From assembly GCA_041675005.1 (NCBI GenBank), contig JBAYUQ010000001.1, positions 66,235-130,234 on the forward strand: DNA of 64,000 nt, written 5' to 3'. The first letter of the stretch is position 1; each line of letters opens with the position of its first letter. The stretch is from Candidatus Kapaibacterium sp. (GTDB lineage: Bacteria > Bacteroidota > Ignavibacteria > Kapaibacteriales > UBA2268). The notes beneath the pieces are model-generated. The model was not told the DNA's origin and did not search any database. It saw only the letters and a program-made list of their open reading frames with translations. Positions 112 to 57,001 of this stretch are shown here, in pieces. A program made the translations under genes and the position numbers.

Positions 112-1692
112 ATGAAAAAGTATATTATACTATTCATGCTTCTTTTAGGAGCAAGTAACCCACTTTATAATCAAATTGATTCTATTTGGATAGGGAATTC
201 GCCAGAGCCATGTATTACAACACACATAGATAATGATACTTGTTACAGGACGAGTGGTTGGGTAGGTCCAATGACAGATACTATTCGTGGTATTTATGGG
301 GATCCAAATTGTAATCCCAATTGTTACTTTGTAGTTGTGTATTATGAAAGATTTGATACACTTAATACTCAATGTTACGGTGAGGAATATAAAGAATACC
401 AAGATGATGAAGTACAGTCTTATTACCCTTTTATTTCAGGTATTTATTGGTATGGAGAAGACGATTGTTACGAATGTGAATCTGATAAATTGGAACTTTA
501 TTTTATTGAGAATTTTTATAAAGATGCAGAAGAGGAAATGCCAGGTATAATAAACAACTTATCGGTTTGTTATTTTGGTGGGATAAGAGTCCATTGCGAA
601 GGTATTGCAACACAATATTATACTATAGGAAAATGTTACGATAATGACGGTAAAGAATGTGATAAGGGTACTCAACGGTGTTGCACAAATAGAATAAATG
701 TAAATTCAGATGCAACAGATACATTAAATAGACAAGTGGATTCTATTACTTACTTCCCAGGTGGTAGTGGTCCTCTTCCCCCTTGCCCTGGTAGTTGCGA
801 AGATGGATGTGACCCCAAAAAGAAAAGCTTGTTAGCAGGGCTATCTACTTGCGCTATTCCTTGTAATGAGGGGCTATGGATAGCAGATTCATCTGAAACA
901 ATTACAATTGATTCATTGCTTACTGGTTGTAGTGGATGTACGATTAAAATTCATTATAGTTATCGAAATAACAATAATCCTTCTTGTCCAGACAATTACA
1001 AAGATGCACGGTTCGATTCTATTTCCTATGACTGTCTTGATAATAGCTGTATAGATCAACTAACCCCAGAGGAAATGGTTGCTTATGTGAATGAGTGGCT
1101 TTTAAAATATAGCATAGTAAATAATGTACCACTAGGTGGATGTAGAGATAATTATAGATTAGTGAATGCTCTCTGTGTTACTGACTTTGACACAATATCC
1201 CATACAGGATTGGGTGATTGTAACCCTTTATATAATGATCAGCTAGGATGTTGTTGGGGCAGATATTTAGTTTGTCAAGTAGCACCTAATGAATATACTG
1301 CGGTGAAAATAGATGGTTCTGAAATGATTGGTGATACTTGCGTTTGGTTTACTCGCCCTTGTATACCTATTTGTGATAACGTTTATAATAGTATAATGAG
1401 CGACCCTAATGATCCTTTTGGAGAGAATACTTTCGAGGACGTATATAGGGCAATGGAAACAATTGAAAAAGCAGAGAGCTATGTTGTCTCTTCAGTTAAT
1501 GAAGGGATAAATGTATATGATAAAATAGGAAGAGAAAGTAAGGTTCTTATATATGATTTATTTGGCAAGTTAGTCGGAAATGAGAATACACTCCCTATTA
1601 TGTATCAACACTTAGTTAAGGGTACGTACTTTATAACTGTAAAAGTAGGTAATAATGTTTTAAAAATCTATAAAATCTATATAGAAAAATGA
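112..1692 (+). CDS. Cys-rich secreted protein (~38 Cys) with a T9SS-like C-terminal sorting domain; cassette A, gene 1.
   Basis: N-terminal signal peptide. Dense Cys motifs; module GCSGCTIKIHYSYRNNNNPSCP is shared with the Cys-rich proteins at 43036, 54194 and (weakly) 50402. C-terminus ...IYDLFGKLV...GTYFITVKVGNNVLKIYKI is T9SS-CTD-like. Confidence 0.75.
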   Translation: MKKYIILFMLLLGASNPLYNQIDSIWIGNSPEPCITTHIDNDTCYRTSGWVGPMTDTIRGIYGDPNCNPNCYFVVVYYERFDTLNTQCYGEEYKEYQDDEVQSYYPFISGIYWYGEDDCYECESDKLELYFIENFYKDAEEEMPGIINNLSVCYFGGIRVHCEGIATQYYTIGKCYDNDGKECDKGTQRCCTNRINVNSDATDTLNRQVDSITYFPGGSGPLPPCPGSCEDGCDPKKKSLLAGLSTCAIPCNEGLWIADSSETITIDSLLTGCSGCTIKIHYSYRNNNNPSCPDNYKDARFDSISYDCLDNSCIDQLTPEEMVAYVNEWLLKYSIVNNVPLGGCRDNYRLVNALCVTDFDTISHTGLGDCNPLYNDQLGCCWGRYLVCQVAPNEYTAVKIDGSEMIGDTCVWFTRPCIPICDNVYNSIMSDPNDPFGENTFEDVYRAMETIEKAESYVVSSVNEGINVYDKIGRESKVLIYDLFGKLVGNENTLPIMYQHLVKGTYFITVKVGNNVLKIYKIYIEK

Positions 1693-3050
1693 AAACATCA
1701 TTAATAATAATAACATTTATGCTTCACTCATCACTTTTTTGTGGTGAGTGGACTAATTTAAGTAATCTAGGAACGAGTTTAGTAGCACCTAAAGTTGAAG
1801 CTGTTAATGATAATGTGATGATCTCTGGAAATGTTGGTGGGATTATCCCTCATGTATTCAAATCAACTGATAGAGGAGTGACCTGGGAAATTGCCTTAGA
1901 TGATTCTGTTAAAAGAGATGAGACTGGAAAAGTTATATATCATCCTAGAAGAATGAATGATTTTAAATATATGACTGAAGACCACGCTTTTATAATGAAT
2001 GAAGGGACTTTATATTGGTACACTTCTGATGGAGGGGACACTTGGTTTCAAGATAGTATTATAGATGGTTCAAAAGGTGGGGTAAATCGATACATAAATT
2101 TTAACTCTAAAGGATATGGTGTTACAAGTATTTATGACTTATACCTTACAAAAGATTGGGGTAAGACTTTTGAGACTATTGAAATAAAAAGTGAAACCGA
2201 TACTTTGATTAATAAATCAGTTTATGATGATTTAATAATTACAGATGATGGATTAATATTTGGAGCAGGATATTATATAGTAAAGCCATATCATGAAGAT
2301 AATAAACTATTCACTGTACTATCTAAAGACTTAGGTAAAACTTGGGAAGTTAGTTCTATTCTTGAGAAAAGAATGAATGCATACACCCAATTATCGAATG
2401 GAAATATAATTGCAGTTGGTTCAGAACAAACCAAACCAAACGCATCAACGTTCAAAGATATAATACAAATATCTACTGATGGAGGATATAGTTGGGAAGT
2501 TGTTTTAGATACTTTATCATCTCCTAGTAGTATATTATGGGATGTCGAATTTATCAATGACAATGATGGAATTACTTTTTCTCCGGGTTTCTCGAAGTTA
2601 TTAAGAACCTCAGATGGTGGTAGGACTTGGTACAGGGATTATGGAACTTATGATTTACCAGAATCACCTGAGGATTATGCTTATCTTCCGAATGGAGAAA
2701 TACTAGCAGTTGATAGAGCAGGAGAGGTCTCCAAATGGTCTGACCCAGTACTTAGTGTGGAAGATGATAGCAAGTTCAATACTGAACCAAGCATCAAACT
2801 TTATCCAAATCCATTATCAATAAACGAACCTTTAAATATAGAGTTCTTACCTCGTTATTTAGGACAAATAGAACTTTCAATAATAGATATAACAGGCAAA
2901 AAGTTAAGTTCATATACTTTAGATATAATAGGAAATAACAAACAAACATTAACCTATAAACCTGATAATGATCTAACTTCGGGTACATATTTCATCCAAA
3001 TCGGCTATAAGAACGGAATAGCTGAAAGACAAAAGTTTGTGGTGGAGTAA
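1689..3050 (+). CDS. Asp-box/BNR-repeat beta-propeller protein (Ycf48/sialidase-like fold) with a T9SS C-terminal domain; cassette A, gene 2.
   Basis: Six repeats of the STDRGVTWE / SDGGDTWF / TKDWGKTFE / SKDLGKTWE / STDGGYSWE / TSDGGRTWY type. C-terminal KLYPNPLS...GTYFIQIGYKNGIAERQKFVVE is a Por_Secre_tail. ATGA start/stop overlap with the upstream gene indicates translational coupling. Confidence 0.8.
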   Translation: MKTSLIIITFMLHSSLFCGEWTNLSNLGTSLVAPKVEAVNDNVMISGNVGGIIPHVFKSTDRGVTWEIALDDSVKRDETGKVIYHPRRMNDFKYMTEDHAFIMNEGTLYWYTSDGGDTWFQDSIIDGSKGGVNRYINFNSKGYGVTSIYDLYLTKDWGKTFETIEIKSETDTLINKSVYDDLIITDDGLIFGAGYYIVKPYHEDNKLFTVLSKDLGKTWEVSSILEKRMNAYTQLSNGNIIAVGSEQTKPNASTFKDIIQISTDGGYSWEVVLDTLSSPSSILWDVEFINDNDGITFSPGFSKLLRTSDGGRTWYRDYGTYDLPESPEDYAYLPNGEILAVDRAGEVSKWSDPVLSVEDDSKFNTEPSIKLYPNPLSINEPLNIEFLPRYLGQIELSIIDITGKKLSSYTLDIIGNNKQTLTYKPDNDLTSGTYFIQIGYKNGIAERQKFVVE

Positions 3051-3074
3051 CAAACTCCAACAAAATATAAACAC

Positions 3075-3101: not shown

Positions 3102-3106
3102 TTATT

Positions 3107-7989: not shown

Positions 7990-7993
7990 ATTT

Positions 7994-15956: not shown

Positions 15957-17354
15957 TTATTTTGCTATTTTATATTTATCTGAATAATTGCCAAGTAGTT
16001 GGTCTAATTGTGCGTAAGATATAAGCAACTCAAACTTAGTTCTTAGGTTATTAATCTTAGCTGTTCTCAGTGCTAGATCCGAATCATTAATTTCTAAAAG
16101 AGAACCAATTCCTTCTTCATATCTGATTTTAGAAATATCATAACCTCTTTGTGCTTGACTTATATTTCTTGTATTAGCTTCTAGTTGTTTTTGAGAAGAT
16201 TGAATTCTCTTTACCAGATTTTTTACTTGCGATTTCAATGATAATTCTACTAACTCTGTTTGAGTTTTAGTCTTTTTCAAATCCAATTCAGCTTTCTCTA
16301 CTCTAGCATTTGTTTGTAAACCAGAGAACAAATTCATTTTGAATCTTAATCCTACTTGCGAAGTGCTTGCAGTTGGGAAGTTGAAATCATTTGATTGACC
16401 TTGCAAAGAGTAGTTCCCAAAAGCAGATAGAGTTGGCAAATATTCCGATTCGTAAACGGCGATAAAATCTTTGTTTACTTCTTCCTGCATATTAAGTGCA
16501 GATAACTGTGGATTGACTAATAGTATTTGGTCTTCTATTTCTTCTATTTTATACTCATCACTATAATCATCTTTGAATGAATTTAATTGGTCTGTTAAAT
16601 CAATTTTTACTTGAGGCTCCATACCCATTATAACTTTCAAGTTATTCTTTGCAGATTCATATTCATTTTCAGCTGATATTAATTGAGGTGCAAAGTTCTC
16701 CACTTGTACTTCTGCTCTTATCATATCATACTCTCCAATTAGCCCTTCATTGAAAAGTGTTTTGATATCTTTGAAGCTTGTTTCAGCATTAGTTTTACTT
16801 GCTTTTACCAATTCGTAAGACTCCTTTTGCAATAAAGCTTGCATATAAGCACTTTTGACGTTGAATACTAACTCATCTACCTTCACATTCATATTCAATT
16901 TAGCAGCATCATAATAATTGTCTGCTCCAGAAATTGAACGGAATACCGCCGAATTGAATATAGTTTGAGATACATCTATTCTTGCATCTATCGCATTGTC
17001 AGATGACGCCTTAATGAATCTACCTGCACCACCGGTGCTTCCATCCGGAGAAGGAAATAAGTCACCGGATATATAAAACTGCATTGGTTCCAAATATCGA
17101 GTGTAGTTAGCACTAAGGTCAACAGTAGGTAGTGCATGACCATAAGCTTCATCTACATCAGCTTCGGCTTTATTTACATCGTATATGGCACTTTTAAGTT
17201 GTTTGTTGTTTTCTAGTGCCAATTTGATAGCGTCATCTAGTGATACTTTTTCTTGTGCGAATGTATTTATAGTTGCGAACAACATAATTGCTAATAGAGC
17301 ATATAAGCTCTTCCCGTAATTCATTTTTCTTCCTTCGATTTTATTTTTTATCAT
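15957..17354 (-). CDS. TolC-family outer-membrane efflux protein.
   Basis: 465 aa; signal peptide; two OEP repeat halves. Confidence 0.85.
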   Translation of the reverse strand: MIKNKIEGRKMNYGKSLYALLAIMLFATINTFAQEKVSLDDAIKLALENNKQLKSAIYDVNKAEADVDEAYGHALPTVDLSANYTRYLEPMQFYISGDLFPSPDGSTGGAGRFIKASSDNAIDARIDVSQTIFNSAVFRSISGADNYYDAAKLNMNVKVDELVFNVKSAYMQALLQKESYELVKASKTNAETSFKDIKTLFNEGLIGEYDMIRAEVQVENFAPQLISAENEYESAKNNLKVIMGMEPQVKIDLTDQLNSFKDDYSDEYKIEEIEDQILLVNPQLSALNMQEEVNKDFIAVYESEYLPTLSAFGNYSLQGQSNDFNFPTASTSQVGLRFKMNLFSGLQTNARVEKAELDLKKTKTQTELVELSLKSQVKNLVKRIQSSQKQLEANTRNISQAQRGYDISKIRYEEGIGSLLEINDSDLALRTAKINNLRTKFELLISYAQLDQLLGNYSDKYKIAK

Positions 17355-33285: not shown

Positions 33286-33319
33286 TTTACATAAAAATTG
33301 AGCTTTAATTGAGATATTT

Positions 33320-34790: not shown

Positions 34791-34987
34791 TTGTAAGGAT
34801 GATAAAGATAGATGAATGTAGGATATTATTCAAAATTACATTCTTTGTATTTGGTTTAGTTTTAGTAATTTCTTTTCCTCCTCAAAATATCACTTATTTG
34901 TAGCTCATTTGATTCACTTTTGTTGCTCAATTTACATAATATTTGAGCTTTATTTCAAATTATTTTGAGCTACAAATTAAAAATAAA

Positions 34988-35992: not shown

Positions 35993-36195
35993 TCTGTATT
36001 ATTTTTAAGCCTATAACTGAAATTTTCAGTTTATTTTGTTGGTAATAATTTATTTAAAGGAATTCAAATAATTTGATTTGATGAAATTTATAAATATAAT
36101 TTCTTATTAATTAAGCTTTTTAATCTGTATCTCATTTGATCCACTTTTGTAATACAAATTACACAAAAAATGAGTTTTATTTCAAATAAATTTTG

Positions 36196-36232
36196 GCTTC
36201 AAAAAAAAAGACTACCTTGTGAGTAGTCTTCC
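36196..36232 (-). terminator. Rho-independent terminator downstream of clpP.
   Basis: Minus strand: GGAAGACTACtcacaagGTAGTCTTTTTTTTT. Confidence 0.75.
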
Positions 36233-42675: not shown

Positions 42676-42897
42676 ATTTTTTCTTGTTTTGGATTTCTAA
42701 TAATCCGAAAATTAATCATTTTTGGGGGAATATTTATAGAATTGAATATATTTCTTAACGAGAAATAGTAACAAAATATTAATAATATTAAATTAAATTC
42801 GGCAAAATGAAAAAATAATTAGGTTATTTCATTATTTTTTTTTTTAGTTTCAATTAAATTTTTATTTTAAATCAGAAATTAGTGGGAAAAAATAATA

Positions 42898-43035
42898 AAG
42901 GTCAGAAAAAACTTCGTGGGTAATTCCTGACCTGTATTTATCATCTAAAATTGCACACCTCAAATGATATTTACAAATTTAATGAATTATCCTCAAACAA
43001 TTAAATAAATATTAATTTTTATAGGAATTTCAGAA
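42898..43035 (+). promoter_or_regulatory. Degenerate copy of the cassette leader element upstream of cassette B.
   Basis: ggtcagaaaaaac...cctgacctgta retains the GTCAG/CTGAC inverted repeat and the ttatagg box; the central part has diverged. Confidence 0.4.
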
Positions 43036-44016
43036 ATGAAAAAAATTACAAACATATTGATTGCTCTTGGAGTAACACTATTCCTTCTGACAGTTGGGAT
43101 GAAAAGCGAGGCGGAGGCACAAACACCGCATTGTGATGGTGATCCATGTGTGAATGCTTCTGCTTGTGGTTCTTGGATTCAAGCACCAGATTTACCCATC
43201 CCATTAGACCCAAATTGCCCTTCTTGTATTATGACAATTCGTTACAAATACAGGGATAACTCTGGGTGTAATAATCCATGTCCTAATGCACCTAAATTTG
43301 AATTCCAAATAGATTATGTAGTAACAGATGGTTCTTGCTTTTATCCTTGCAATGGAAACCCTGCTCAGTATAGTTTTAGTCAGATGGATAAATTATATAT
43401 GGAAGCAGTATTTCAGTTAATTAAAAAATATTCATTACCATTTATAACTGTTCCACCGAATCCACCTTTAGGGTGTGGACCTGTTATTCCGAACTTTAAA
43501 GGGACTTCATGTAAAAAGCAATATATTGCTCCTGACGGAAATGTATATATTTTGACTTGTTTTCTAACTGAATGTTGCGTTCAAAATCTTCAATTCTGTG
43601 TAGATATAAACGGTAAAGAGACTATGACTAAGGCTAATATTTATTCGCCGCCTGATAATTGTGGTACTGATCCCGATGGTTTAAGTTGTACTTATTCATG
43701 TGACTGGGAATGGGAAGAATCATTAGTACCAAAAGAAGTGAAAGCACTTCCAAATAATATTTATGATAATTATAAAGTAGATTATACTATTGACCCAAGT
43801 AATTTGAATATAAAATTAGAAGGAGAATTAAATGGGAAGCTTTCTCTAAATATCTTTAGCACTGAAGGTGTTAGTAATATTTATGAAGTATTCAACGTAA
43901 ATGAGACAAGTTTTGAAATTAACTTAGATAATAATTTTACCAATGGTGCTTATTATATGGCTTTCAGTCTCAACGGTGAATTAATTAAAGTTGAAAGTTT
44001 CATGATAGTAAAATAA
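43036..44016 (+). CDS. Cys-rich secreted protein with a T9SS-like CTD; cassette B, gene 1.
   Basis: Signal peptide. NCPSCIMTIRYKYRDNSGCNNPCP and TECCVQNLQFCVDING modules are homologous to the 112-1692 protein. C-terminal ...LSLNIFSTEGVSNIYEV...GAYYMAFSLNGELIKV. Confidence 0.75.
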   Translation: MKKITNILIALGVTLFLLTVGMKSEAEAQTPHCDGDPCVNASACGSWIQAPDLPIPLDPNCPSCIMTIRYKYRDNSGCNNPCPNAPKFEFQIDYVVTDGSCFYPCNGNPAQYSFSQMDKLYMEAVFQLIKKYSLPFITVPPNPPLGCGPVIPNFKGTSCKKQYIAPDGNVYILTCFLTECCVQNLQFCVDINGKETMTKANIYSPPDNCGTDPDGLSCTYSCDWEWEESLVPKEVKALPNNIYDNYKVDYTIDPSNLNIKLEGELNGKLSLNIFSTEGVSNIYEVFNVNETSFEINLDNNFTNGAYYMAFSLNGELIKVESFMIVK

Positions 44017-44034
44017 CAATTCTGAGGTTTTGAT

Positions 44035-45486
44035 ATGATTAAGTATATATTACTATTATTACTAGCAAATAGCTCAGTATTCTCTGTTGATTTTAATAAA
44101 TATGATTTTACTCCATTATTGGTAAAGGAGGGATTTATATTAGAGCAAATCGAAACAAATAGTACTGGTAACATTATTGTATCTGGATATAATAAAATAG
44201 GCGATGATCCTCAAACTCATATTTTTAATAATGTGGTATTGAAATCAATTGATAAGGGATTAAATTGGACTATTATTTATTTAGATTCCAATGAAACTTT
44301 ACCCAAATCTGAAAGGAGTTTCTACAATGTTGAAGAATTGAAGTATTTGGATAACGGTAATATATTACTTTTTTCTCATACAGGGTATATTTTACAATCG
44401 TTTGACGATGGTGAGACTTGGATAAGAGATTCATTAGGTGTGTTCAAAACTCCAGTACAGGTCGAATTTATTGATAGTGAAAATGGTATTGCACTATTTT
44501 TTAAATCTTATGATAAGAAACTTACTACAGAACTATACTTGACAAACGATGGTGGAATGAATTGGAACGAATTAAATGTTCCAGTAAACGCTTTACTTGA
44601 ATATGAAACAGAATTAAGAATAGGGGAGTTCTATTCTTTCGGTGAAGGTACTATTTCATTTTTTATGGTTGATCGTCATTACGAAAATGATTCATTGATT
44701 GAATCAACGAATTACTTAATCAGTTCTCCTAATTATGGTACAACTTGGGAAAAGGAGATATTTAATTTGCCTGTGGAACGTTCAAGAATAAAGTTTTTAG
44801 ATGATAAGTATATTATTCTATTTGGTATTTTGCAATCCAAAACTCATTTTGACAATTTAGGAAATCCTTTTGGTCACGATATTGTTTTGGAGAGCTTCGA
44901 TAGAGGGACTTCTTGGGATACACTTTTAATTAATTTAGATACTAATGTTAATTCTAGTATACAAGGTAGTCTTGAGTATGTTGATGAAAAATATTTATTA
45001 TTCAGGGGGGCAAACTCTGGCATAAGTATTTTTGACAGAGGAAACAAAGGTATTATAGCCCTTTACCCAAATAATATCTTAGAATTAAGAGAACAGTACA
45101 ATTATCAGAATAGCTACGATTATATAAGATTTGGAGATAAAATACTAGTTACTGGTGGTGGTGGTTATCTTTTTTATGTTGACTACAAAAGTCCGATAAC
45201 TTCGGTAGAAGATTTGTTTAGTCAGTCTGAATTAGAGATTTATCCAAACCCAGTTTCTCGTAGTCAATCTATTAATTTAAAATTAGCCCCAGTAGCATGG
45301 GGTATTTCTACAATTTCTATTATTGATATGAATGGTAGAACTATTTCCTCTTTTGATAGGAACTTAACTTCTATTTCAGAGACTTTAGAAATCAATCCAA
45401 ATAATAGTTTGACTTCGGGTCTGTATTTTGTCCAGATTGAATATCCAAACGGATTTGTCGATAGACAGAAGTTTATCGTCAATTGA
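44035..45486 (+). CDS. Asp-box/BNR beta-propeller protein with a T9SS CTD; cassette B, gene 2.
   Basis: SIDKGLNWT, SFDDGETWI, TNDGGMNWN, SPNYGTTWE, SFDRGTSWD; C-terminal EIYPNPVS...GLYFVQIEYPNGFVDRQKFIVN. Confidence 0.8.
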   Translation: MIKYILLLLLANSSVFSVDFNKYDFTPLLVKEGFILEQIETNSTGNIIVSGYNKIGDDPQTHIFNNVVLKSIDKGLNWTIIYLDSNETLPKSERSFYNVEELKYLDNGNILLFSHTGYILQSFDDGETWIRDSLGVFKTPVQVEFIDSENGIALFFKSYDKKLTTELYLTNDGGMNWNELNVPVNALLEYETELRIGEFYSFGEGTISFFMVDRHYENDSLIESTNYLISSPNYGTTWEKEIFNLPVERSRIKFLDDKYIILFGILQSKTHFDNLGNPFGHDIVLESFDRGTSWDTLLINLDTNVNSSIQGSLEYVDEKYLLFRGANSGISIFDRGNKGIIALYPNNILELREQYNYQNSYDYIRFGDKILVTGGGGYLFYVDYKSPITSVEDLFSQSELEIYPNPVSRSQSINLKLAPVAWGISTISIIDMNGRTISSFDRNLTSISETLEINPNNSLTSGLYFVQIEYPNGFVDRQKFIVN

Positions 45487-45501
45487 TATGTAATACTTAT
45501 G

Positions 45502-45526
45502 AAAGGAGCTTCGGCTCCTTTTTCAT
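45502..45526 (+). terminator. Rho-independent terminator of cassette B.
   Basis: gAAAGGAGCttcgGCTCCTTTTTc. Confidence 0.7.
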
Positions 45527-49248: not shown

Positions 49249-50009
49249 TGGAAGAAGGCAAATCAGTTCTATCAGCACAAGGACTAATCAAAATCTATGG
49301 CAAACGAACAGTTGTCAAAGGGATAGACATAGAAGTAAAGCAAGGTGAAATAGTCGGTCTGCTTGGTCCCAACGGAGCTGGTAAGACTACAGCCTTCTAT
49401 ATGATAGTTGGTATGGTTCGACCGAATAAGGGTATAGTACGAATAGATGATAAAAAGATTACCCGTAAGGCGATGTACCAACGCGCTAGAATGGGTATTA
49501 GTTATCTGCCACAAGAGCCATCTATATTCCGTAAGCTATCAGTTGAAGATAATATAAAAGCTGTACTCCAGCTACAAAAAGGACTCAGCCGAAAGCAAGT
49601 AAAGGAAAAGTTAGAACAGCTCCTTGAAGATTTTAAAATTGCTCGTGTGCGTAAGAGTAAGGGGTATATGCTTTCGGGAGGGGAGAGACGCCGTTGCGAG
49701 ATAGCCCGAACGCTAGCATCAGACCCCAAATTCATTCTCTTAGATGAGCCATTCGCAGGAATTGACCCTATTTCAGTAGAAGATATTATGGATATTATCT
49801 TTGCTCTTAAAAACAAGGGAATTGGAATACTAATCACCGATCACAACGTCCACGAAACTCTGTCAATCACTGATAGAGCTTACATTCTAATAGACGGCAG
49901 TCTATTCACGAGCGGAAAATCCGAAGAAGTAGCTGCTAATCCTGATGTCCTCAAGTTTTACCTCGGCGAGAATTTCCGCTTGGAAAGATACGTACCTAAA
50001 GACCTATAA
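49248..50009 (+). CDS. lptB: LPS export ABC transporter ATP-binding protein.
   Basis: Walker [10 protein letters not shown]; signature LSGGERRR; Walker B ILLDEP; GTG start overlapping the htrA stop. Confidence 0.85.
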
Positions 50010-50130
50010 GCAATAAGTAAATTCGCCACTTTTGCCTACTTTGTTACTAATTCAACTCCCCCTTAACTCTAGTTATAACATTTATATACAATTGTTGATA
50101 AAAGCTGCTTGTTTTTTAAAATAAATTTGG

Positions 50131-50145
50131 ATTTTATTTTATTTT
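50131..50145. repeat. (ATTTT)3 pentanucleotide tract in the cassette C upstream region.
   Basis: ggATTTTATTTTATTTTaaac; the homologous position in the duplicate copy (53896-53935) carries 8 units. Confidence 0.8.
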
Positions 50146-50278
50146 AAACTTGATACAAATGAAATTAATCAATATTTGTAAACTGTTCTATAAAATGAAT
50201 TACAAATGAATCCAACAACAAAGCACCACTCATCTGGAGGCAAAAAGTGGTTTTCAAATTCTAGTAGATATAAAAAAA

Positions 50279-50401
50279 GTCAGAAAAAACGAAAGTCGTT
50301 TTTCCTGACCTGTAGTTGTCAAACTAATTCTGACCGAACACATTTGACAGTCACAAATATAGCAATAATTATTTATTATTAACATATTTATAGGTAAGCA
50401 A
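50279..50401 (+). promoter_or_regulatory. Conserved leader/promoter element, copy C.
   Basis: 13-bp imperfect inverted repeat GTCAGAAAAAACG-aaagt-CGTTTTTCCTGAC (50279-50309); TTGTCAAA-N19-TTTGACAG inverted repeat; putative -33 TTTG and -7 TAatTAtT boxes; ends at the ATG. Confidence 0.6.
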
Positions 50402-51001
50402 ATGAAAACTCTAAAATTTATCTTATTAAGCGTAGTTGTTTTTATTATAACTATTAATTTCTCTAATGCCGCTCCTTGTCCTTTAGGACAAAGTACTGTT
50501 TATAAGACTTTCCTAATAACTTACAACGGTGTATCTTGTTGGGTTGAAGCACAAATCTGTGCCGATTGTGATATTACTGGAAGTAATGTATATTTAGCAG
50601 TGAACGACATAAAAAAACCAAGTTACCCAGGAATTCCAACAGCCATAATTTATCAACAAGTTGCTGCTCAGTTATCTGAGAATGTATTTGAAATCTGTCA
50701 AATTGAACCTTGTAGTTCTCCTACAACTTCAAAAGTTTACGTAAAAACACCAGTTTGTGTGAAAAAATCTGCTGTTATGGAATTTGGAAACCTTTATATT
50801 TATATTATACCTTGTGATTGGAGTGCATACTATGAAGTTTATACACAAACTTGTTTTGATCCAATTTTGGATGACTATATAACAACACCAGTTGGTGTAG
50901 AAAAGTTTGGAACACCAAGTTGTACTGCGTTAGCCGAACCAGGCGATCCAGCTATAGATAACGTTACAGATTGCTACCAACAAGACTGTTTTCAAGATTA
51001 A
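50402..51001 (+). CDS. Small Cys-rich secreted protein (no CTD); cassette C, gene 1.
   Basis: Signal peptide (..SNA/AP); 14 Cys; C-x2-E-x3-C-x2-C and P.IP...I..Q...Q.S modules shared with the 54194-54838 protein. Confidence 0.7.
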   Translation: MKTLKFILLSVVVFIITINFSNAAPCPLGQSTVYKTFLITYNGVSCWVEAQICADCDITGSNVYLAVNDIKKPSYPGIPTAIIYQQVAAQLSENVFEICQIEPCSSPTTSKVYVKTPVCVKKSAVMEFGNLYIYIIPCDWSAYYEVYTQTCFDPILDDYITTPVGVEKFGTPSCTALAEPGDPAIDNVTDCYQQDCFQD

Positions 51002-51014
51002 TAATAATAGAAAT

Positions 51015-53444
51015 ATGAAATACATTTTAATTCTTATAGCTTTAAGTACTAACCTTATAGCACAGCAATTCAATATAACCCCTTTGAGTATTAATTTCAA
51101 TGGGGTTATATCTATTGATGATAATATAGTTATTTATGGTGATAACGGTTATTATTATTTCTCTCAAGATGGAGCAAATAATTGGGAACAAAGACTGTTG
51201 CTTGAGCAAAAGAACATTCGCAAAATACAAGAGAATAATGGCGTACTTTATGGTATTTTGGAAGATGGTTATCTGATCAAATCAACTAACAAAGGGTTAG
51301 ATTGGAGGATAACGAAATTTGAAAATGATACTAGTATGAAATTTGTTACTATGGATGTAAATGATAAAAATGTATATGTCCGAGGCATAGACGAAATTTT
51401 AAAATTTGACTTAGATTTTAACTTAGTTAAAAGATATAAAAATTCAATTCTAAACTATTATGGGCCATCCCTAATCTTCACTTATGATGTGAATTTAATA
51501 AACAAATTCATACAGTATTATAATGGTTATTTAGTTGTTCCTCTACAAAATGAAAATTATCTGATTTTAAACGATGAATTAGAATATATTAAGGAAGTCT
51601 ATCTCATTGATTCTTTAGATGCGATTGATGACCCAGATGCTAGATTGATAGATATGATTGTATATGGTGATGAATTATTAGTCACTCTTGATGGTCCCAT
51701 TAAAAGTGGATTAGACTATTTTATAATAAATGAAACAAATCTACTCGGGAAGTGGGATGAAATAGTTCTTAGTAAAGATAGAAAAAGACTTTTATTTAGT
51801 AGCTTTAAAAATGAACTTTATACTTTAGAATTTAGTGTTGAAACTAATGAAGAAGATGTTGGAAGTACTTGGAGATTTAAGGCAAGTGTTAGTAAATATA
51901 GATTACGAAAATATAATAAAGTTACTAATGATTTTGATTCAATCGGGGAATGGTTTGATTCATTTTTTGTTCTTGGTTTAACTAGAGTTACAGAAAATGG
52001 ATACTCGCCTATTTATACAAATAAACCAAATATAACATCGGATTCAACTGTATTAGTAGTTGGTGATAAAAAAACTATTCTTACCTCACAATATGGTAAA
52101 AACTGGAATTTATTCTCTTATATTGAAGGAACTCCTAGTCAGATATTTAATGATAACGTCTATTTGAATAAAGGTATTTACGCTTCTACGACGAAAGACG
52201 GTGGACTATCAAGCACAAATAGGCGAATAGTAGATACTACTGATTGTCATTATTGCAAATTCACTAATTTTCATCAATCATTTATCAGCCCCAATGGAAA
52301 TGGTTTTCTTTATGGAAGTCCAATTTATGACACTTGGGCTAATATTGGATTTACCAAAGATAGTGGCAATACTTTTGAATTTTCATACAATACTGATTTC
52401 TATTTTAGAACTTTCAAATTTGCAACAAACTTTGCTGAATTAGGAGACGAGTATTGTACAATCCATAATCGAAAAACAACCGCTTCTAACCCTTTGCTTA
52501 GCAGTATGTGGGTTACGTATGCATATTACTTCAATAAAGATGATTTCAGTGATTATAGGATGGAAGTATTAGATACTAACGAATATAGATACTATTACTT
52601 ATTTACTCAAAGTGCGGATTATTATCAACAAGTTAGATATAACTTCGAACAACTTCACCCTAAAGATCAGTTTTTAGAGATAAGGACTACAACTGATGCT
52701 GGTAAGAGTTGGACTTCTTTTCATAAGATTCAGAATTATTCGGAGAATTTTAAGTTTTATGAGCATAACAAAGATAGTTTATTTATTACTAGCTATGGAT
52801 ACACAAGTTATGGGGATTTTGATTATACTAATAGAGTGTATCTTTATGACAGAACGAGAGATGTAGTCGATACCTTATTTAGTGAAGACGAGGTAAATAG
52901 AAAAAATCTGCAACTTGTTTTCTTTGATAATCATTTTTATATAATGGGTGATAGCATACTCAAAGTAGGTAATAAAACTCTAACAGAATGGTCTGATGTA
53001 CAGAATTGGCCAACTCAGAACCCATCATTTGAAGAAGTCTTATCGAATGGAAATGTAATTCTAACTAAATACAAAGATGATACTAGAAAGTCAAAGGATT
53101 TCTATTTAGATAATTATTATAAGATAGTAGCTGATAAAACTACAGATGTCGAAATTACAACTGTTGCGCTTAGAACTTATGAAGCATATCCAAATCCAAC
53201 TACTGGGAAAGTATTTGCTGAGATATATTGGCAATCTGGTTTTGATATATTTGAATCTATCAAAGGTGTTTATGATATATCAGGTAATCTGGTTTCAACA
53301 AGGGAGCAAATCGCATTGACAAAATCCCATAACTATTCTGGATTATTAGAATGGGATAGTAGCTCACATCCGTCCGGGATTTATTTCATTGTAATTAAAC
53401 ATGGGAACAATAAACAATCGATTCCATTTGTGGTGGTTGAATAA
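51015..53444 (+). CDS. Large Asp-box/BNR beta-propeller protein with a T9SS CTD; cassette C, gene 2.
   Basis: SQDGANNWE, STNKGLDWR, TTDAGKSWT, TKDSGNTFE; C-terminal AYPNPTTGKV...GIYFIVIKHGNNKQSIPFVVVE. Confidence 0.8.
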   Translation: MKYILILIALSTNLIAQQFNITPLSINFNGVISIDDNIVIYGDNGYYYFSQDGANNWEQRLLLEQKNIRKIQENNGVLYGILEDGYLIKSTNKGLDWRITKFENDTSMKFVTMDVNDKNVYVRGIDEILKFDLDFNLVKRYKNSILNYYGPSLIFTYDVNLINKFIQYYNGYLVVPLQNENYLILNDELEYIKEVYLIDSLDAIDDPDARLIDMIVYGDELLVTLDGPIKSGLDYFIINETNLLGKWDEIVLSKDRKRLLFSSFKNELYTLEFSVETNEEDVGSTWRFKASVSKYRLRKYNKVTNDFDSIGEWFDSFFVLGLTRVTENGYSPIYTNKPNITSDSTVLVVGDKKTILTSQYGKNWNLFSYIEGTPSQIFNDNVYLNKGIYASTTKDGGLSSTNRRIVDTTDCHYCKFTNFHQSFISPNGNGFLYGSPIYDTWANIGFTKDSGNTFEFSYNTDFYFRTFKFATNFAELGDEYCTIHNRKTTASNPLLSSMWVTYAYYFNKDDFSDYRMEVLDTNEYRYYYLFTQSADYYQQVRYNFEQLHPKDQFLEIRTTTDAGKSWTSFHKIQNYSENFKFYEHNKDSLFITSYGYTSYGDFDYTNRVYLYDRTRDVVDTLFSEDEVNRKNLQLVFFDNHFYIMGDSILKVGNKTLTEWSDVQNWPTQNPSFEEVLSNGNVILTKYKDDTRKSKDFYLDNYYKIVADKTTDVEITTVALRTYEAYPNPTTGKVFAEIYWQSGFDIFESIKGVYDISGNLVSTREQIALTKSHNYSGLLEWDSSSHPSGIYFIVIKHGNNKQSIPFVVVE

Positions 53445-53455
53445 AAATAAATCTA

Positions 53456-53481
53456 AAGGAGCCAACTCGGCTCCTTTTTTC
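53456..53481 (+). terminator. Rho-independent terminator of cassette C.
   Basis: AAAGGAGCCaactCGGCTCCTTTTTT. Confidence 0.75.
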
Positions 53482-53608
53482 TATTTATTCTCCTCTTACA
53501 ATAACTAACTTAATAACAAGTTTATACACCAATCATTATTTGTTTGCAATTGCTTCTTTTTGATAGTAATTTTGCAACTACCTAAAAAGATAATATTTGG
53601 AGATTAAT

Positions 53609-53773
53609 ATGCCATTCGTTCCAGCATCGGACAAAGATAGAGCATATATACTAATAGACGGCAGTCTATTCACTAGCGGAAAATCCGAAGAAGTGGCTGC
53701 TAATCCTGATGTCCTCAAGTTTTACCTCGGTGAGAATTTCCGCTTAGAAAGATACGTCCCGAAAGACCTATAA
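53609..53773 (+). pseudogene. Chimeric 54-codon ORF marking the tandem-duplication junction: gcvPA codons 1-11 fused in frame to the last ~43 codons of lptB.
   Basis: Translation MPFVPASDKDR|[43 protein letters not shown]. The first part matches 57183..., the second matches 49879-50009. The junction lies at the shared GATAGAG microhomology. Confidence 0.85.
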
Positions 53774-53895
53774 TCAACAAGTGAACTTGTTCCCTTGTTC
53801 CAATATTGTCACCCTCCCTATACATTTCTAACTCTAGTTATAACACTGCGATAAAAATGTTAATAAAAAACGCTTGTTTTTAATAAATAATTTGG

Positions 53896-53935
53896 ATTTT
53901 ATTTTATTTTATTTTATTTTATTTTATTTTATTTT
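53896..53935. repeat. (ATTTT)8 pentanucleotide microsatellite in the cassette D upstream region.
   Basis: Eight tandem ATTTT units, versus three at the homologous position 50131-50145. Confidence 0.85.
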
Positions 53936-54068
53936 AAATTTGATACAAATGAAATTAATCAATATTTGTAAACTGTTCTATAAAATGAATTACAAATGAA
54001 TCCATCAAAAAAGCACCACTTAACTGGAGACAAAAAGTGGTTTTCAAATTCTAGTAGATATAAAAAAA

Positions 54069-54193
54069 GTCAGAAAAAACGAAAGTCGTTTTTCCTGACC
54101 TGTAGTTGTCAAACTAATTCTTGCCGAACACATTTGACAGTTACAAATATAGCAATAATTATTTATTATTAACATATTTTGTGGAGTTAAAAA
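54069..54193 (+). promoter_or_regulatory. Conserved leader/promoter element, copy D.
   Basis: Near-identical to 50279-50401, including the GTCAGAAAAAACG/CGTTTTTCCTGAC hairpin (54069-54099). Confidence 0.6.
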
Positions 54194-54838
54194 ATGAAAG
54201 CAACAATTAACAATTTGATTTTTTTAAGTATAACAATATTCGTTGCCAAAAGCATTAATATTGAAGCCAAACCTATTTGTACCAAACCATGGGTAAATAT
54301 CGTAGATACAGTTACAGTTGACGGATGTGATTATGAAATAGATTTATGTGTATACTGTGCATTCGCTTATCCAGGGAAAGTTAAAATTAATTATTATAGA
54401 AATATTAGTGGATGTACACCTACCATACCACCTAATCAAATAACAAATCAAATTATATCTCAAATCTCAACGTATGCCTATTTTTGGTTTGATTATTGTC
54501 AATTCAATTTACCCCCGTGTTCAGGTTCACTGCGTAAAAAAATAGAATGGGATATTTATATATGTTGGAAGGCTAAATTAGTAATTAAAGGTGCGACCCC
54601 ACATGATGATGTCTACCTCCATTTACCTTGTGAAGATAATGATACCTTCTGTCGTGTTACTTATTCTTATTGTGTAGATGAGTTTGCCGTTGTTCATCAT
54701 AATGTTTCTGGATACTTAGGCTATAATTTTGATCCTTCATGTACACTGGAAGGTTCAGCAGTATTCCCTTTACCACCATCCGCTATGGTTGGAGATGAGA
54801 CAGCATGTTACGTTTTACACACGGTATGTAACCCATAG
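54194..54838 (+). CDS. Small Cys-rich secreted protein (no CTD); cassette D, gene 1.
   Basis: Signal peptide; 20 Cys; CVYCAFAYPGKVKINYYRNISGC matches the CxxC-x3-I-x-Y-x-YR-N module of the 112 and 43036 proteins. Confidence 0.7.
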   Translation: MKATINNLIFLSITIFVAKSINIEAKPICTKPWVNIVDTVTVDGCDYEIDLCVYCAFAYPGKVKINYYRNISGCTPTIPPNQITNQIISQISTYAYFWFDYCQFNLPPCSGSLRKKIEWDIYICWKAKLVIKGATPHDDVYLHLPCEDNDTFCRVTYSYCVDEFAVVHHNVSGYLGYNFDPSCTLEGSAVFPLPPSAMVGDETACYVLHTVCNP

Positions 54839-54844
54839 AATAAT

Positions 54845-57001
54845 ATGTATAAATTTCTTATAGTATTAATTTTCATAATCCCTTTTGCATCAAATGCCAA
54901 TATTTGGACTAAGGCGGATGGGCCATTTGGTTATGCTATGTCGTACAATATTTTCAATTATGATAATAATCTATATTCATCTAGTCAATCTAATGGTTTA
55001 TCAGTATATAAATTAGATAATAAAGAATGGACACGATTAGATACTGGTTTCTTTTCTGGCAAAGGATTAATACATTATTTTGATCAAAAAGAAAACGTAG
55101 TACTTACTTCTACTGATTCAGGTATTTATTTGTCCTATAATTATGGAAAGGACTGGAAGCATTTTGATACATTAGGTGGTTTTGATAGATTTCATTTTGT
55201 CACCATTGTTGACGAAACAATATTTTTACAATCCAACCAATTCAGAAGTTTGTATAAACTTGAAAAGGGTTCTGAGACTTTAGAAAAAATATATGCTAAT
55301 GAACAAAAAACAGACTCTATATTTGCTGATGTTATTATAACGAATGATAACTATATTTTTGCTGCTGACCCTGTTAAACATTATGATGTTCAAGATAAAG
55401 AAGGGACATTATATATATCAAGTGACAAAGGAGAAAGTTGGAAACTATCTGAAACAATGAATAAAAAAATCAAGAATTTATTATTTCATGAGGATATATT
55501 ATTAGCCTTTACTGAAGAAGATGGATTATTTAGGTCAACCGACTACGGAAAAAGTTGGACTACTGATACAAATTTAGTAATTAAATCAAATAAAGTAGCT
55601 TCCTATAAGAATTTGATTTTTTCATGTGAGAACGAAATACAAATTTCTACTGATAACGGAATCAGTTGGAAAGTTCAAAACAATGGTTTAAAGTCAATTG
55701 CTTGTAGGGATATTCGTATAGTAAATGATACATTATATTACTTTACAAATCAAAGAATAATATATTATTTCGATTATGAAAATAAATTGTGGATAAGAAA
55801 TACTCCAATTACTGATGACGTGTCTCAAGAGTTTATTTCAGCAGAAAATGATACTCTATTCACAACAGGATCATATACGATAAACTATTCGATTGATAAT
55901 GGATTAACTTGGAGTATATATAGTGATAGTTTGTATTACAATTTTACAAACATTGGAAGAATATATAAGCAAGATAGTGTAATATTTGCCTTAAATCGCC
56001 TTAATTCTTTACTCTTAATCTCGATTGATTATGGACAATCTTGGAGATTTGAAACTTTAGGAAAATCTGAAAATCAACCTTGGATAGGCGATGTATTGCT
56101 AATGGACAATCGAATACTCCTCTTTACAAAGTTTGGTAATTTTTATTCTGAAGATGTTGGTTTAAATTGGGTTGAGTATGAAGGGGAAGTACTAGATAAG
56201 GATGTGAAAGTAAGAAGATATTATAGACTAAGTAATTCCAAAATAATTGTTTATAGTGAGGTAGGGCTTTATCTAACCTATAATAATGGATTAACTTGGG
56301 TCTATGAAAAAGCTGACGAAGAAGTAATGACCCACTACTATACTTACAGAGAAGATAATAATTTATATACAATGGACTTTCTTGAATTTGATCAAATATA
56401 TAAATCTACTAACTTAGGACGTACTTGGGTTGATTTAGAAATAAATATAGAATCTGGTTTAAGGTGGGCTAGTATAATACCATATAATGGTAATTTAATA
56501 TTGTTAACTAGTACTGGAGTTTTTGTTTCTGATAATGAAGGAAAAGAATGGACAAAATATGAGATTAATTTATTTACTCCTGACCAAAAGGAACTTTATT
56601 TCTATAGTGGGTTAATTGTTGATGAGTGTTTAGTATTAACCTCTGCTTATGGTAATTGGCGAGCGAAACTCTCCGATCTTGGAGTTGAAGTAAAGTCTTC
56701 CGTCGAATCAGAAATAGAGCGAAACTATCTATATACTTATCCACCATACCCTAACCCAGCAAAATCAGAGGTAAAGGTTCTGTTTTATTGGGATATAAAC
56801 TTACCAATGACGACAGACGACATTAGCATATATGATATAACTGGTAAGAAAATAGATGCGATTGATAAGATTAGCTTAGTTAAGCAAGAGAGTCATTATG
56901 GCAACCTAATCTGGGATTGCTCTACAGCTCAGCCGGGTATATACCTAATCAACATAAAACATGGCACAGAAGAGAAAACCGTGAAAGTGGTGGTGGAGTA
57001 G
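54845..57001 (+). CDS. Asp-box/BNR beta-propeller protein with a T9SS CTD; cassette D, gene 2.
   Basis: Ten Asp-box-like repeats (SYNYGKDWK, SSDKGESWK, STDYGKSWT, STDNGISWK, SIDNGLTWS, SIDYGQSWR, SEDVGLNWV, TYNNGLTWV, STNLGRTWV, SDNEGKEWT); C-terminal YPPYPNPAKSEV...GIYLINIKHGTEEKTVKVVVE. Confidence 0.8.
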   Translation: MYKFLIVLIFIIPFASNANIWTKADGPFGYAMSYNIFNYDNNLYSSSQSNGLSVYKLDNKEWTRLDTGFFSGKGLIHYFDQKENVVLTSTDSGIYLSYNYGKDWKHFDTLGGFDRFHFVTIVDETIFLQSNQFRSLYKLEKGSETLEKIYANEQKTDSIFADVIITNDNYIFAADPVKHYDVQDKEGTLYISSDKGESWKLSETMNKKIKNLLFHEDILLAFTEEDGLFRSTDYGKSWTTDTNLVIKSNKVASYKNLIFSCENEIQISTDNGISWKVQNNGLKSIACRDIRIVNDTLYYFTNQRIIYYFDYENKLWIRNTPITDDVSQEFISAENDTLFTTGSYTINYSIDNGLTWSIYSDSLYYNFTNIGRIYKQDSVIFALNRLNSLLLISIDYGQSWRFETLGKSENQPWIGDVLLMDNRILLFTKFGNFYSEDVGLNWVEYEGEVLDKDVKVRRYYRLSNSKIIVYSEVGLYLTYNNGLTWVYEKADEEVMTHYYTYREDNNLYTMDFLEFDQIYKSTNLGRTWVDLEINIESGLRWASIIPYNGNLILLTSTGVFVSDNEGKEWTKYEINLFTPDQKELYFYSGLIVDECLVLTSAYGNWRAKLSDLGVEVKSSVESEIERNYLYTYPPYPNPAKSEVKVLFYWDINLPMTTDDISIYDITGKKIDAIDKISLVKQESHYGNLIWDCSTAQPGIYLINIKHGTEEKTVKVVVE

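Follow-up and report, generated by a model that had tools for sequence, protein, structure and literature searches.

Paired genes for a cysteine-rich secreted protein and a type IX secretion cargo protein recur as exchangeable cassettes in Candidatus Kapaibacterium

Why should a gene for a small cysteine-rich (Cys-rich) secreted protein stand directly before a gene for a type IX secretion system (T9SS) cargo protein four times within 64 kb of one bacterial chromosome? The question is raised by a stretch of 64,000 nucleotides from Candidatus Kapaibacterium sp. (family Kapaibacteriaceae, phylum Bacteroidota; GenBank assembly GCA_041675005.1, contig JBAYUQ010000001.1), which is referred to here, at its full length, as the window and has a G+C content of 33.6%. 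It belongs to a contig of 580 kb that was assembled from a metagenome (ENA ERZ27247358 k141_1852216). A preliminary description of the window had reported four such two-gene cassettes, here named A to D, and we found all eight of their open reading frames (ORFs) exactly where it had placed them. The upstream genes are called A_cys to D_cys and the downstream genes A_prop to D_prop. Our analysis indicates that the two-gene cassette is real and previously undescribed. It also revealed three features that go beyond the preliminary description, namely an RNA-like element upstream of each cassette, a tandem duplication that includes cassettes C and D, and the replacement of whole two-gene units.

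The four pairs are operon-like, with the gene for a Cys-rich, signal-peptide-like protein first and the gene for a cargo protein with a T9SS C-terminal domain (CTD) second (Table 1). The intergenic gaps are -4 nt in A, where the A_cys stop and the A_prop start overlap in ATGA, and 18, 13 and 6 nt in B, C and D. Cysteine makes up 5.5-6.5% of the upstream partners and 0-0.6% of the downstream ones, and by inspection only, the N-termini of all eight proteins have a basic residue followed by a hydrophobic stretch. When all six-frame ORFs of at least 100 aa in the window were compared, these eight were the only ones with at least 4% cysteine or at least three Asp-box motifs, and hidden Markov model (HMM) matches to the CTD were confined to the four downstream genes. 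Because no other ORF of this length in the window is Cys-rich, rich in Asp-boxes or CTD-matching, the adjacency in four of four cases is not a matter of chance. The copies have diverged at least as far as had been claimed: identity is 27% between A_prop and B_prop (434 aa aligned, E 1e-28), 28% between A_cys and B_cys (110 aa) and 27% between C_cys and D_cys (73 aa), while the 34% identity of C_prop and D_prop lies in the CTD only. The division into an A/B and a C/D sub-type, by protein size and by the presence of a CTD on the Cys-rich partner, was described correctly. A split gene or a sequencing error was ruled out as the source of the two-ORF layout. The Cys-rich ORFs are not detached N-termini of the propeller genes: a hydrophobic leader begins each propeller ORF, and the layout of two ORFs recurs in relatives. 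These relatives are loci in public metagenome-assembled genomes (MAGs) and metagenome contigs, labelled L003, L004, L005 and so on.

Table 1. Positions of the cassette genes, upstream elements and duplication landmarks in the window. CM R1 is a covariance model of the upstream element (81 positions, 24 pairs).
Feature	Position	Strand	Description
Element A	1-68	-	Cut by window start; 5' hairpin and half of terminator hairpin; CM R1 1-57, 48.6 bits, 3'-incomplete; full copy at L030:9866-9946
Element A box	61-68	-	TAnnTTTG on the minus strand, CAAATATA on the plus strand
A_cys	112-1692	+	526 aa, 32 Cys; putative signal peptide, Cys-rich domains ~1-231 and 250-445, type A CTD-like C-terminus
A_prop	1689-3050	+	453 aa; putative signal peptide, ~seven-bladed BNR/Asp-box propeller, type A T9SS CTD
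Element B	42892-42981	-	TAAATTTG box (plus strand 42974-42981), hairpin, terminator hairpin, U-run; CM R1 42892-42970, 75.2 bits
B_cys	43036-44016	+	326 aa, 18 Cys; single Cys-rich domain after conserved leader MKKITNILIALGVTLFLLTVGMKSEAEAQ, type A CTD
B_prop	44035-45486	+	483 aa; Asp-box propeller (5 boxes), type A CTD
Terminator-like hairpin 3' of cassette B	45501-45522	+	
lptB-like ABC ATPase gene, 3' end	49872-50021	+	Left end of duplicated unit; 92% identical to 53636-53785
Element C	50270-50361	-	TATATTTG box (plus strand 50354-50361), covarying hairpin, 16-bp terminator hairpin, U-run; CM R1 50270-50350, 98.7 bits
C_cys	50402-51001	+	199 aa, 12 Cys; putative signal peptide and single Cys-rich domain, no CTD
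C_prop	51015-53444	+	809 aa; type A CTD cargo; N-terminal ~700 aa of unassigned fold, 3 Asp-boxes
Bidirectional terminator-like hairpin 3' of cassette C	53455-53477	both	Inside duplicated 3' flank 53449-53607
Chimeric pseudo-ORF	53609-53773	+	Duplication junction; 11 first gcvPA-like codons and 43 last lptB codons; repeats D4, D8
Element D	54060-54151	-	CM R1 54060-54140, 100.7 bits
D_cys	54194-54838	+	214 aa, 14 Cys; putative signal peptide and single Cys-rich domain, no CTD
D_prop	54845-57001	+	718 aa; 10 Asp-boxes at ~42-aa spacing, type A CTD
Bidirectional terminator-like hairpin 3' of cassette D	57027-57051	both	

The T9SS sorting tail that had been read at the ends of the downstream proteins was borne out by profile searches. 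All four exceeded both curated cut-offs, that of Pfam PF18962 with 29.6-40.4 bits (27 required) and that of TIGR04183 with 29.4-41.7 bits (23 required), and a Pfam search found no match to the type B CTD, PF13585, among the proteins of the window. Directly upstream of cassette A, on the source contig, lie porU (Peptidase_C25, 1338 aa) and porV (PF19572), and these two genes also adjoin the corresponding cassette site in L008 and L028. The second part of the claim, that the downstream proteins are Asp-box propellers, held for three of them. With a strict Asp-box defined as S/T-x-D/N-x-G-x-x-W/F/Y, we counted 6 boxes in A_prop, 5 in B_prop, 3 in C_prop and 10 in D_prop, where shuffled sequences lead one to expect about 0.1, and the boxes of A_prop, B_prop and D_prop are spaced 40-60 aa apart. 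Since these counts are far above the shuffles, A_prop, B_prop and D_prop are clear Asp-box repeat proteins. PF02012 (BNR) was matched by A_prop (32 bits) and D_prop (42.8 bits), the D-type and A/B-type propeller profiles matched each other at 98.3%, and D_prop is probably a double propeller. The best solved relative of A_prop by sequence was Ycf48 (E 1.5e-7); A_prop and B_prop matched Ycf48 and Sortilin-Vps10 models, and D_prop matched SorCS2 weakly. C_prop resembles a propeller only weakly, on account of its three boxes. Pfam recognised its CTD alone and gave no BNR match, and its homology to the other propellers is restricted to the CTD, the N-terminal ~700 residues being without similarity.

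Several family assignments for the downstream proteins were considered and set aside. A_prop exceeded the cut-off of PF15902 (Sortilin-Vps10; 35.6 against 33 bits) over model positions 4-112 of 446 only, B_prop stayed below it, and the Cys-rich partners had no Pfam match of any kind, so the cassettes are not members of the sortilin/Vps10 family. For the sialidase family GH33/BNR_2 (PF13088), A_prop reached 20.8 bits against a cut-off of 31.4 and the other three proteins had no match; by inspection, no RIP motif was seen in the A_prop translation. D_prop scored 111.3 bits over five partial repeats against the F510_1955 family glycosylhydrolase model NF045728, whose cut-off is 175, and the others scored at most 21. 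None of the eight cassette proteins matched a PADLOC defence HMM at E ≤0.01. In one relative, the partner of a B-type Cys-rich protein (L010:2407-3837) has a CTD that is 43-49% identical to D-type CTDs and an unrelated N-terminal part; this cargo gene looks mosaic, with the CTD as a recombination anchor.

The Cys-rich partners proved harder to classify. Neither Pfam, NCBIfam nor PADLOC gave a family match for any of the four, and D_cys appears in NCBI as 'MAG: hypothetical protein WC121_00530 [Candidatus Kapaibacterium sp.]'. Profile searches, which had been proposed for both partners, thus recognised the downstream CTD and left the Cys-rich proteins without a known family. Pairwise BLAST similarity among them is marginal. 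A word-indexed search of 5.8 billion proteins returned only 7 relatives of B_cys, and a profile search of the same number returned a C/D family of 15 members including the two of the window; all were unannotated. A full HMMER scan with a B-family profile found 56 matches among 1.84 billion cluster representatives, about 45 of which have 290-350 aa, 14-19 cysteines and a CTD-like end. Profile comparison joined the sub-types: hhalign matched the A/B-type and C/D-type profiles at 96.9% (E 2e-10, 163 columns) and C_cys to the D family at 96.2% over its full length, and the A5 HMM matched C_cys at 6e-51. In A_cys, the A8 HMM matched two domains (independent E-values 2.6e-8 and 2.4e-23), and hhalign matched residues 255-526 at 98.1% and the N-terminal half at 74.8%. 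A_cys consists of two tandem domain copies and a CTD, the latter scoring 20.2 bits with PF18962, below the cut-off. These comparisons place all four Cys-rich proteins in one superfamily. Among 31 family members, none had a Pfam match in the Cys-rich region and 21 had Por_Secre_tail at the C-terminus; matches to CHU_C (PF13585) in six distant members are read as CTD cross-matches.

Nearly all invariant columns of the family alignments are cysteines, and the Cys-rich domain is accordingly predicted to be a rigid scaffold with variable surfaces. D_cys has a conserved C-terminus of the form CY-x-x-HT-x-CNP. Its AlphaFold2 model, built from 14 sequences, reached a predicted local distance difference test score (pLDDT) of 80.6 and a predicted template modelling score (pTM) of 0.74, and consists of three strands, a 20-residue helix and five strands. 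We found no fold match for this model in the PDB (best Foldseek TM ≤0.16). The model of B_cys was uninformative as a guide to the Cys-rich domain (pLDDT 61.8), and only its CTD sandwich was usable. A separate observation concerns the leader. The predicted Sec leader xxNILVALGVTLFLLTVGMKSEAEAQ (window 43036-43122) is near-invariant in B-type, D-type and other Cys-rich proteins and recurs in L005, L008, L009, L010, L016, L019 and L028, where the mature domains are 25-50% identical. Recent gene conversion was ruled out as the origin of this conservation, since the copies differ at synonymous sites, and the invariance, which is uncommon among signal peptides, suggests a dedicated targeting role.

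We then asked how the pair behaves in relatives, inspecting the context wherever a homologue or an upstream element turned up. A CTD-cargo gene followed every Cys-rich gene for which downstream sequence was available, in about 24 cassettes from at least 10 MAGs. Pairs were found in L003, L004 (B-type then D-type), L005, L008, L009 (two), L010, L012 and L013, and further ones in L014 (three in tandem, B+D+D), L016, L019 and L028 (two in tandem). The genes overlap or are separated by a few tens of nucleotides at most, an ATGA-like start-stop overlap recurs in cassette A, L003 and L012, and the pair is present at no fewer than three unrelated chromosomal sites. The host MAGs are labelled Kapaibacterium, Ignavibacteria(e/ota), Chlorobiota or Bacteroidota bacterium. 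The partner types co-vary. A-type Cys-rich proteins go with A-type propellers, those of L012 and L025 being 45-84% identical to A_prop; B pairs with B in L003 and L004, and D with D in L005, L008 and L019, with D_prop orthologues in L008 and L019 that are 48-57% identical. Variations in gene number also occur: L012 has two propeller genes after one A-type Cys-rich gene, and L013 has a three-gene form with an extra 191-aa CTD protein. Thus the pair is conserved as a unit in relatives, which had been proposed as a check, and the operonic linkage stands; its supposed strictness does not, owing to two loci (L025 and L028) that are weighed below. The linkage is very strong, not strict. Beside the D-type cassette of L005, on the opposite strand, two genes stand in the reverse order, the first for a Por_Secre_tail protein of 436 aa and the second for a low-Cys protein of 243 aa (L005:10855-12993, minus strand).

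Each cassette is preceded by an element of about 80 nt. Both the core pattern and CM R1 found exactly four copies in the 64 kb, all of them 42-65 nt 5' of the ATG of a Cys-rich gene. Three copies also appear as a DNA repeat family, D2 (1-109, 50294-50402 and 54084-54192), and the stretch 53921-54179 is 97% identical to 50131-50389. CM R1 found further copies before the extra tandem cassettes of L014 and L028. A longer gapped pattern identified 12 true loci in GTDB species genomes and 3 in JGI metagenomes, while five further matches, one in a genome and four in metagenomes, lay in unrelated coding sequence and were rejected as chance. In genomes and metagenomes together, 17 of the 18 evaluable public copies end 30-68 nt before a Cys-rich ORF.

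The element has a strand. When 18 distinct copies were aligned, the consensus fold reached -16.2 kcal/mol on the minus strand, where it forms two hairpins and then a U-run, against -6.4 kcal/mol on the plus strand. The named structure is paired in 91.8% of cells, compared with at most 57.8% in slid controls. In helix 1, five of the eight pairs covary (GC to AU, UA to CG, AU to UA), changes that come from only two or three sequence lineages; in helix 2 there are many G-U pairs, which would be A-C mismatches on the plus strand. Minimum free energies of single copies were -27 to -31.5 kcal/mol on the minus strand (z -6.0 to -7.2), with -30.4 for the full copy of element A (z -6.05), -27.0 for B (z -6.0) and -31.5 for C (z -7.2); on the plus strand they were -12.7 to -19.7 kcal/mol (z -1.6 to -3.8), the least negative value of each range being that of element B. 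In an independent terminator scan, hairpin 2 was called as a terminator of the minus strand in C (50311-50277) and D (54101-54067). In 17 of 18 copies the first minus-strand hairpin is preceded by TAnnTTTG at a distance of 5-6 bases; the search pattern fixed the TTTG of this box and left the TA free. The same motif is the -7 consensus of primary promoters in Bacteroidota (PMC7366714). These features suggest that the element is an RNA gene of about 80 nt that is transcribed away from the cassette, a putative divergent small RNA (sRNA). Rfam gave no match at gathering thresholds over the whole window and none at E ≤1 over 50020-50420. A 54-codon small ORF across the element in C and D was ruled out, by inspection, by a stop codon in L008.

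The element might instead be a site that acts at the level of DNA, such as an attC-like recombination site or an operator, or a structured 5' untranslated region. As an imperfect inverted repeat at cassette boundaries in tandem arrays it does bear a superficial likeness to attC, and the conservation continues for some 130 nt further upstream (in C, D, L008 and L009), where a plus-strand promoter could lie and would put the element inside a 5' untranslated region. On the other hand, the G-U pairs, the U-run and the TAnnTTTG box are consistent with the minus strand only, and the element is conserved in sequence (mean column identity 80%) and not in structure alone. The genes called up to 10 kb from cassettes A, B and C include no integrase or recombinase family, and the duplication junction described below falls within the lptB and gcvPA coding sequences and not at the element. 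These last two findings ruled out an integron attC in particular, and we regard the DNA-level or untranslated-region explanation in general as somewhat unlikely.

Two further sequence features lie in the same upstream regions. An (ATTTT)n tract occupies the same position 5' of C (50131-50146, plus strand, 3.2 copies) and of D (53896-53936, plus strand, 8.2 copies). Related loci carry (AATTT)n there. The tract lies beside AATCAATATTTGTAAAC, a candidate promoter of the plus strand, and this simple repeat may be subject to phase variation. A second conserved hairpin, ACCACT...AGTGGT (~50225-50251 and ~54015-54041), stands some 25 nt upstream of the RNA-like element. Its loop reads GGAGG on the plus strand and CCUCC, resembling an anti-Shine-Dalgarno sequence, on the minus strand, and L008 and L009 share the hairpin.

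Comparison of the cassettes with each other and with relatives revealed how the loci change. Cassettes C and D lie within a tandem duplication of about 3.78 kb. The blocks 49872-50389 and 53636-54179 match by blastn at 84.6% identity overall, with sub-blocks at 92% and 97%; on the 3' side, 53449-53607 is 95% identical to 57022-57180 and 53606-53654 is 92% identical to 57180-57228. The junction has left a chimeric pseudo-ORF, whose translation begins MPFVPASDKDR and continues with an lptB-derived stretch ending in PKDL and a stop codon. While the flanks of C and D are 85-95% identical, no DNA similarity could be detected between the intervening coding units (50402-53444 and 54194-57001), whose proteins are about 26% identical or unrelated. 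Since point mutation cannot yield near-identical flanks around unrelated coding sequence, the duplication must have been followed by the replacement of one of the two units, C or D.

The same pattern was found between strains. In the comparison with L008, whose flanks are 82% identical, the homologous stretch breaks off 11 nt inside A_cys and is picked up again 25 nt beyond the stop codon of A_prop; L008 has a D-type cassette at the porU-porV-proximal site where the window has cassette A, and L028 has two cassettes there. With L009 (87% identical), the homologous stretch starts immediately behind the stop codon of B_prop and extends to the ATG of C_cys. These comparisons indicate that whole two-gene units are replaced between strains, with boundaries near the start and stop codons. 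Loss seems to occur as well. L032 has no cassette after lptB; its lptB stop codon is immediately followed by the ~17 terminal codons of a D-type CTD, ending in INIKHGTEEKAVKVVIE and a stop codon (16968-17080), and this remnant looks like the scar of a cassette deletion. The B cassette (43036-45486) and its orthologue in L032 (L032:10001-12445) differ by 0.29-0.41 synonymous substitutions per site (dS), compared with 0.60-1.25 for the flanking genes priA, htrA and lptB. The lower dS suggests that the B cassette was exchanged laterally and has been shared more recently than its surroundings. The ratio of nonsynonymous to synonymous substitution (dN/dS) was 0.18-0.23 for the same cassette and 0.03-0.05 for priA, htrA and lptB, a roughly fivefold difference that points to faster evolution of the cassette proteins.

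The window also contains other repeats. Three 87-nt intergenic repeats (33251-33337, 34896-34982 and 36123-36209) are 63-77% identical, form a GCTCAA...TTGAGC hairpin and are unrelated to the cassettes. A 51-nt repeat (27165-27215 and 30424-30474, 86% identical) lies just upstream of two minus-strand genes and may be a shared leader or regulatory motif.

What, then, might the cassettes do? The layout that emerges from these comparisons is a module made up of a divergent RNA-like element, a gene for a predicted secreted, disulfide-rich alpha/beta protein and a gene for a type A CTD cargo protein. We propose that the four loci are copies of a lineage-specific recombining module of Kapaibacterium-like Bacteroidota, each of which makes a co-evolving extracellular protein pair, a proposal that we consider about evenly poised between right and wrong. 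Both proteins would cross the inner membrane via Sec, and the Cys-rich protein would be oxidised and fold in the periplasm. The propeller would then cross the outer membrane by the T9SS and be passed to PorV and PorU, in keeping with the export and processing of known type A CTD proteins (PMC10202324). An A/B-type Cys-rich protein could be exported via its own CTD, while a C/D-type protein, being CTD-less, would either bind the propeller before export or remain periplasmic. On the cell surface or beyond it, the two products would work together as a cognate pair, and the module would diversify by tandem duplication, loss and replacement of whole two-gene units between conserved flanks, under negative frequency-dependent or diversifying selection on an exposed surface for recognition, adhesion or defence. 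The cysteine scaffold with its variable surfaces, the co-variation with the propeller and the replacement of alleles together point to such an exposed recognition surface. Among the functions suggested in the preliminary description (a receptor and its ligand, an effector and its inhibitor, or a variable surface antigen), the replacement pattern favours a variable, co-evolving pair. The secretion route, the physical interaction, the surface location, the transcription of the RNA and the selective agent are what we infer from the DNA. The fullest version of the proposal, in which a seven-disulfide protein of new fold and a T9SS propeller form an obligate complex, with co-export of the CTD-less partner, sRNA control and cassette exchange, is rather unlikely to hold.

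A number of results weigh against this proposal. In L025 (9333-9445 region, minus strand of the locus) the element stands directly before an A-type propeller gene without a Cys-rich gene, and in L028 a Cys-rich ORF is truncated, so a propeller is able to exist alone. The CTD partners in L009a and L013 have no Asp-boxes at all, and like C_prop they are not recognisable propellers. Complementarity between the RNA and the translation-initiation regions of the cassettes was at the level of shuffled controls (z -1.75 to +2.2). Gene-wide dN/dS is well below 1, which means that positive selection is not demonstrated, and the case for diversifying selection comes from allele replacement only. Finally, in a review of the T9SS we found no account of a CTD-less partner leaving with a cargo protein (PMC10202324). 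The surface location of the C/D-type Cys-rich proteins is the weakest step of the proposal, because these proteins lack a CTD and co-export of this kind is undescribed.

That weak step is where a different explanation begins, namely that the Cys-rich protein is a cognate periplasmic chaperone, export adaptor or inhibitor of the propeller and has no place in the final surface structure. The periplasm is the default location of a protein with a Sec leader and no CTD, matched types and tight gene coupling would suit a cognate helper, and the propeller of L025 persists without its partner. There is precedent in the T9SS too, where type B CTD cargo is clustered with an accessory PorP/SprF gene (PMC10202324, PMC9143113). 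The A/B-type Cys-rich proteins, however, end in a type A CTD, which makes them cargo in their own right, and yet they share homology with the C/D type. A helper is not expected to diversify as fast as its client or to duplicate its domain as A_cys does, and the propellers show no enzyme signature that would need inhibition, given the sub-threshold BNR_2 score, the lack of a RIP motif on inspection and the Ycf48-like best match. We consider a helper role unlikely. Another alternative is a pair for competition or self-recognition between bacteria, after the manner of polymorphic toxin-immunity or kin-discrimination loci. One partner would then be a toxin or ligand released by the cell, the other would serve as protection or as receptor, and diversity would be born of an arms race between strains. 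Whole-unit replacement, tandem arrays, gain and loss and a raised dN/dS are typical signatures of competition loci, disulfide-rich scaffolds with variable surfaces are common in secreted toxins and ligands, and A_prop has a weak Pfam match to Tli3, a type VI secretion immunity family (28.9 bits, one blade). That match spans 40 residues, which is a single Asp-box blade, and neither partner has a toxin domain that Pfam, NCBIfam or PADLOC would recognise. By structure, no known toxin matches the D_cys model (Foldseek, at the TM level given above), and both partners would be exported, whereas a classical immunity protein is kept at the site of toxin action in the producing cell. Such a competition pair seems to us quite improbable.

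The remaining possibility is that the two proteins are not functionally coupled. The Cys-rich proteins would then be one more fast-evolving T9SS or periplasmic family that was simply co-duplicated with neighbouring propellers, and the element would be no more than a shared promoter and terminator region. Multi-copy Asp-box CTD proteins are common in these bacteria, as the preliminary description remarked, all copies may descend from one duplicated segment, which would make their co-occurrence historical, and exceptions to the pairing exist in L025 and L028. Against this stands the persistence of the pair despite protein identities of 25% or less, gain and loss of the CTD, domain duplication and the change between single and double propellers. 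It has persisted at a minimum of three unrelated sites and across at least 10 MAGs, with a CTD gene after every Cys-rich gene whose downstream sequence is available, and with start-stop overlaps such as ATGA recurring in A, L003 and L012. An absence of coupling is therefore very unlikely.

We found no published account of T9SS cargo in Kapabacteria or of Cys-rich and propeller T9SS pairs, in agreement with the earlier claim that the pairing is undescribed. Compared with type A CTD cargo, the cassettes share the general plan of T9SS substrates, a Sec leader, here predicted by inspection, followed by a CTD (PMC10202324), the CTD being present on all four downstream proteins and on the A/B-type Cys-rich proteins, and cassette A lies beside porU and porV. 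Known cargo proteins of this kind are described as single genes; here the cargo gene is coupled to an upstream Cys-rich gene, and unlike known cargo, the copies share a dedicated upstream element and move as a two-gene unit. The clustering of a cargo gene with a co-diversifying partner resembles type B CTD cargo and PorP/SprF (SprB/SprF), in which the PorP/SprF-like partner is needed for the fate of the cargo (PMC10202324, PMC9143113, PMC12618676). In that system the partner is an outer-membrane beta-barrel, the cargo carries the PF13585 CTD and the gene order differs. In the cassettes the CTD is type A, and the partner is a soluble, disulfide-rich alpha/beta domain of ~190 aa with no similarity to PorP and sometimes with its own CTD. 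Membership in the type B group was rejected, given that no window protein matches PF13585 and the partners have no Pfam match.

With the seven-bladed Ycf48 and the ten-bladed sortilin/Vps10 proteins the cassettes share Asp-box repeats, one per blade. Sortilin combines an Asp-box propeller with a disulfide-rich module, 10CC. The sequence matches to these proteins span one to three blades, however, and the Cys-rich module of the cassettes is a separate polypeptide encoded upstream, not a C-terminal domain. Hypervariable surface loci, such as those for capsule, O-antigen or variable surface proteins, are swapped between conserved flanks. The cassettes resemble them in the abrupt loss of homology over the unit between housekeeping flanks that are 82-87% identical, in the alternative unit types at one site, and in tandem duplication and loss; they differ in consisting of two protein genes with an RNA-like element of their own, and not of enzymes for glycan synthesis. 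The element itself recalls the DonS family of Bacteroides polysaccharide utilization loci, repressive RNAs of 78-128 nt that lie divergently beside the first gene of paralogous surface-protein operons (PMC7366714). Ours, which is known from its sequence alone, is likewise about 80 nt long, putatively divergent and present once per cassette. It has no sequence or Rfam relation to DonS and no complementarity to the cassette translation-initiation regions, and the operons are T9SS cargo pairs and not susC/susD.

If the cognate pairs are true, type A CTD cargo would for the first time have a partner family dedicated to it, in parallel to the PorP/SprF rule for type B, and the CTD-less C/D type would offer a natural test of whether the T9SS exports protein complexes. 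The Cys-rich domain represents a new protein family, with neither annotation nor a detectable structural relative. The ~80-nt element, if it is a regulatory RNA, would extend the idea of one sRNA per surface operon from the polysaccharide utilization loci of Bacteroides to T9SS cargo. The replacement of whole units marks these loci as targets of strong selection at the level of strains in an uncultured and environmentally widespread lineage, for which phages, predators and neighbouring cells are candidate selective agents. Collectively, if the combined reading is true, the cassettes would constitute a new class of variable surface module for recognition or defence.

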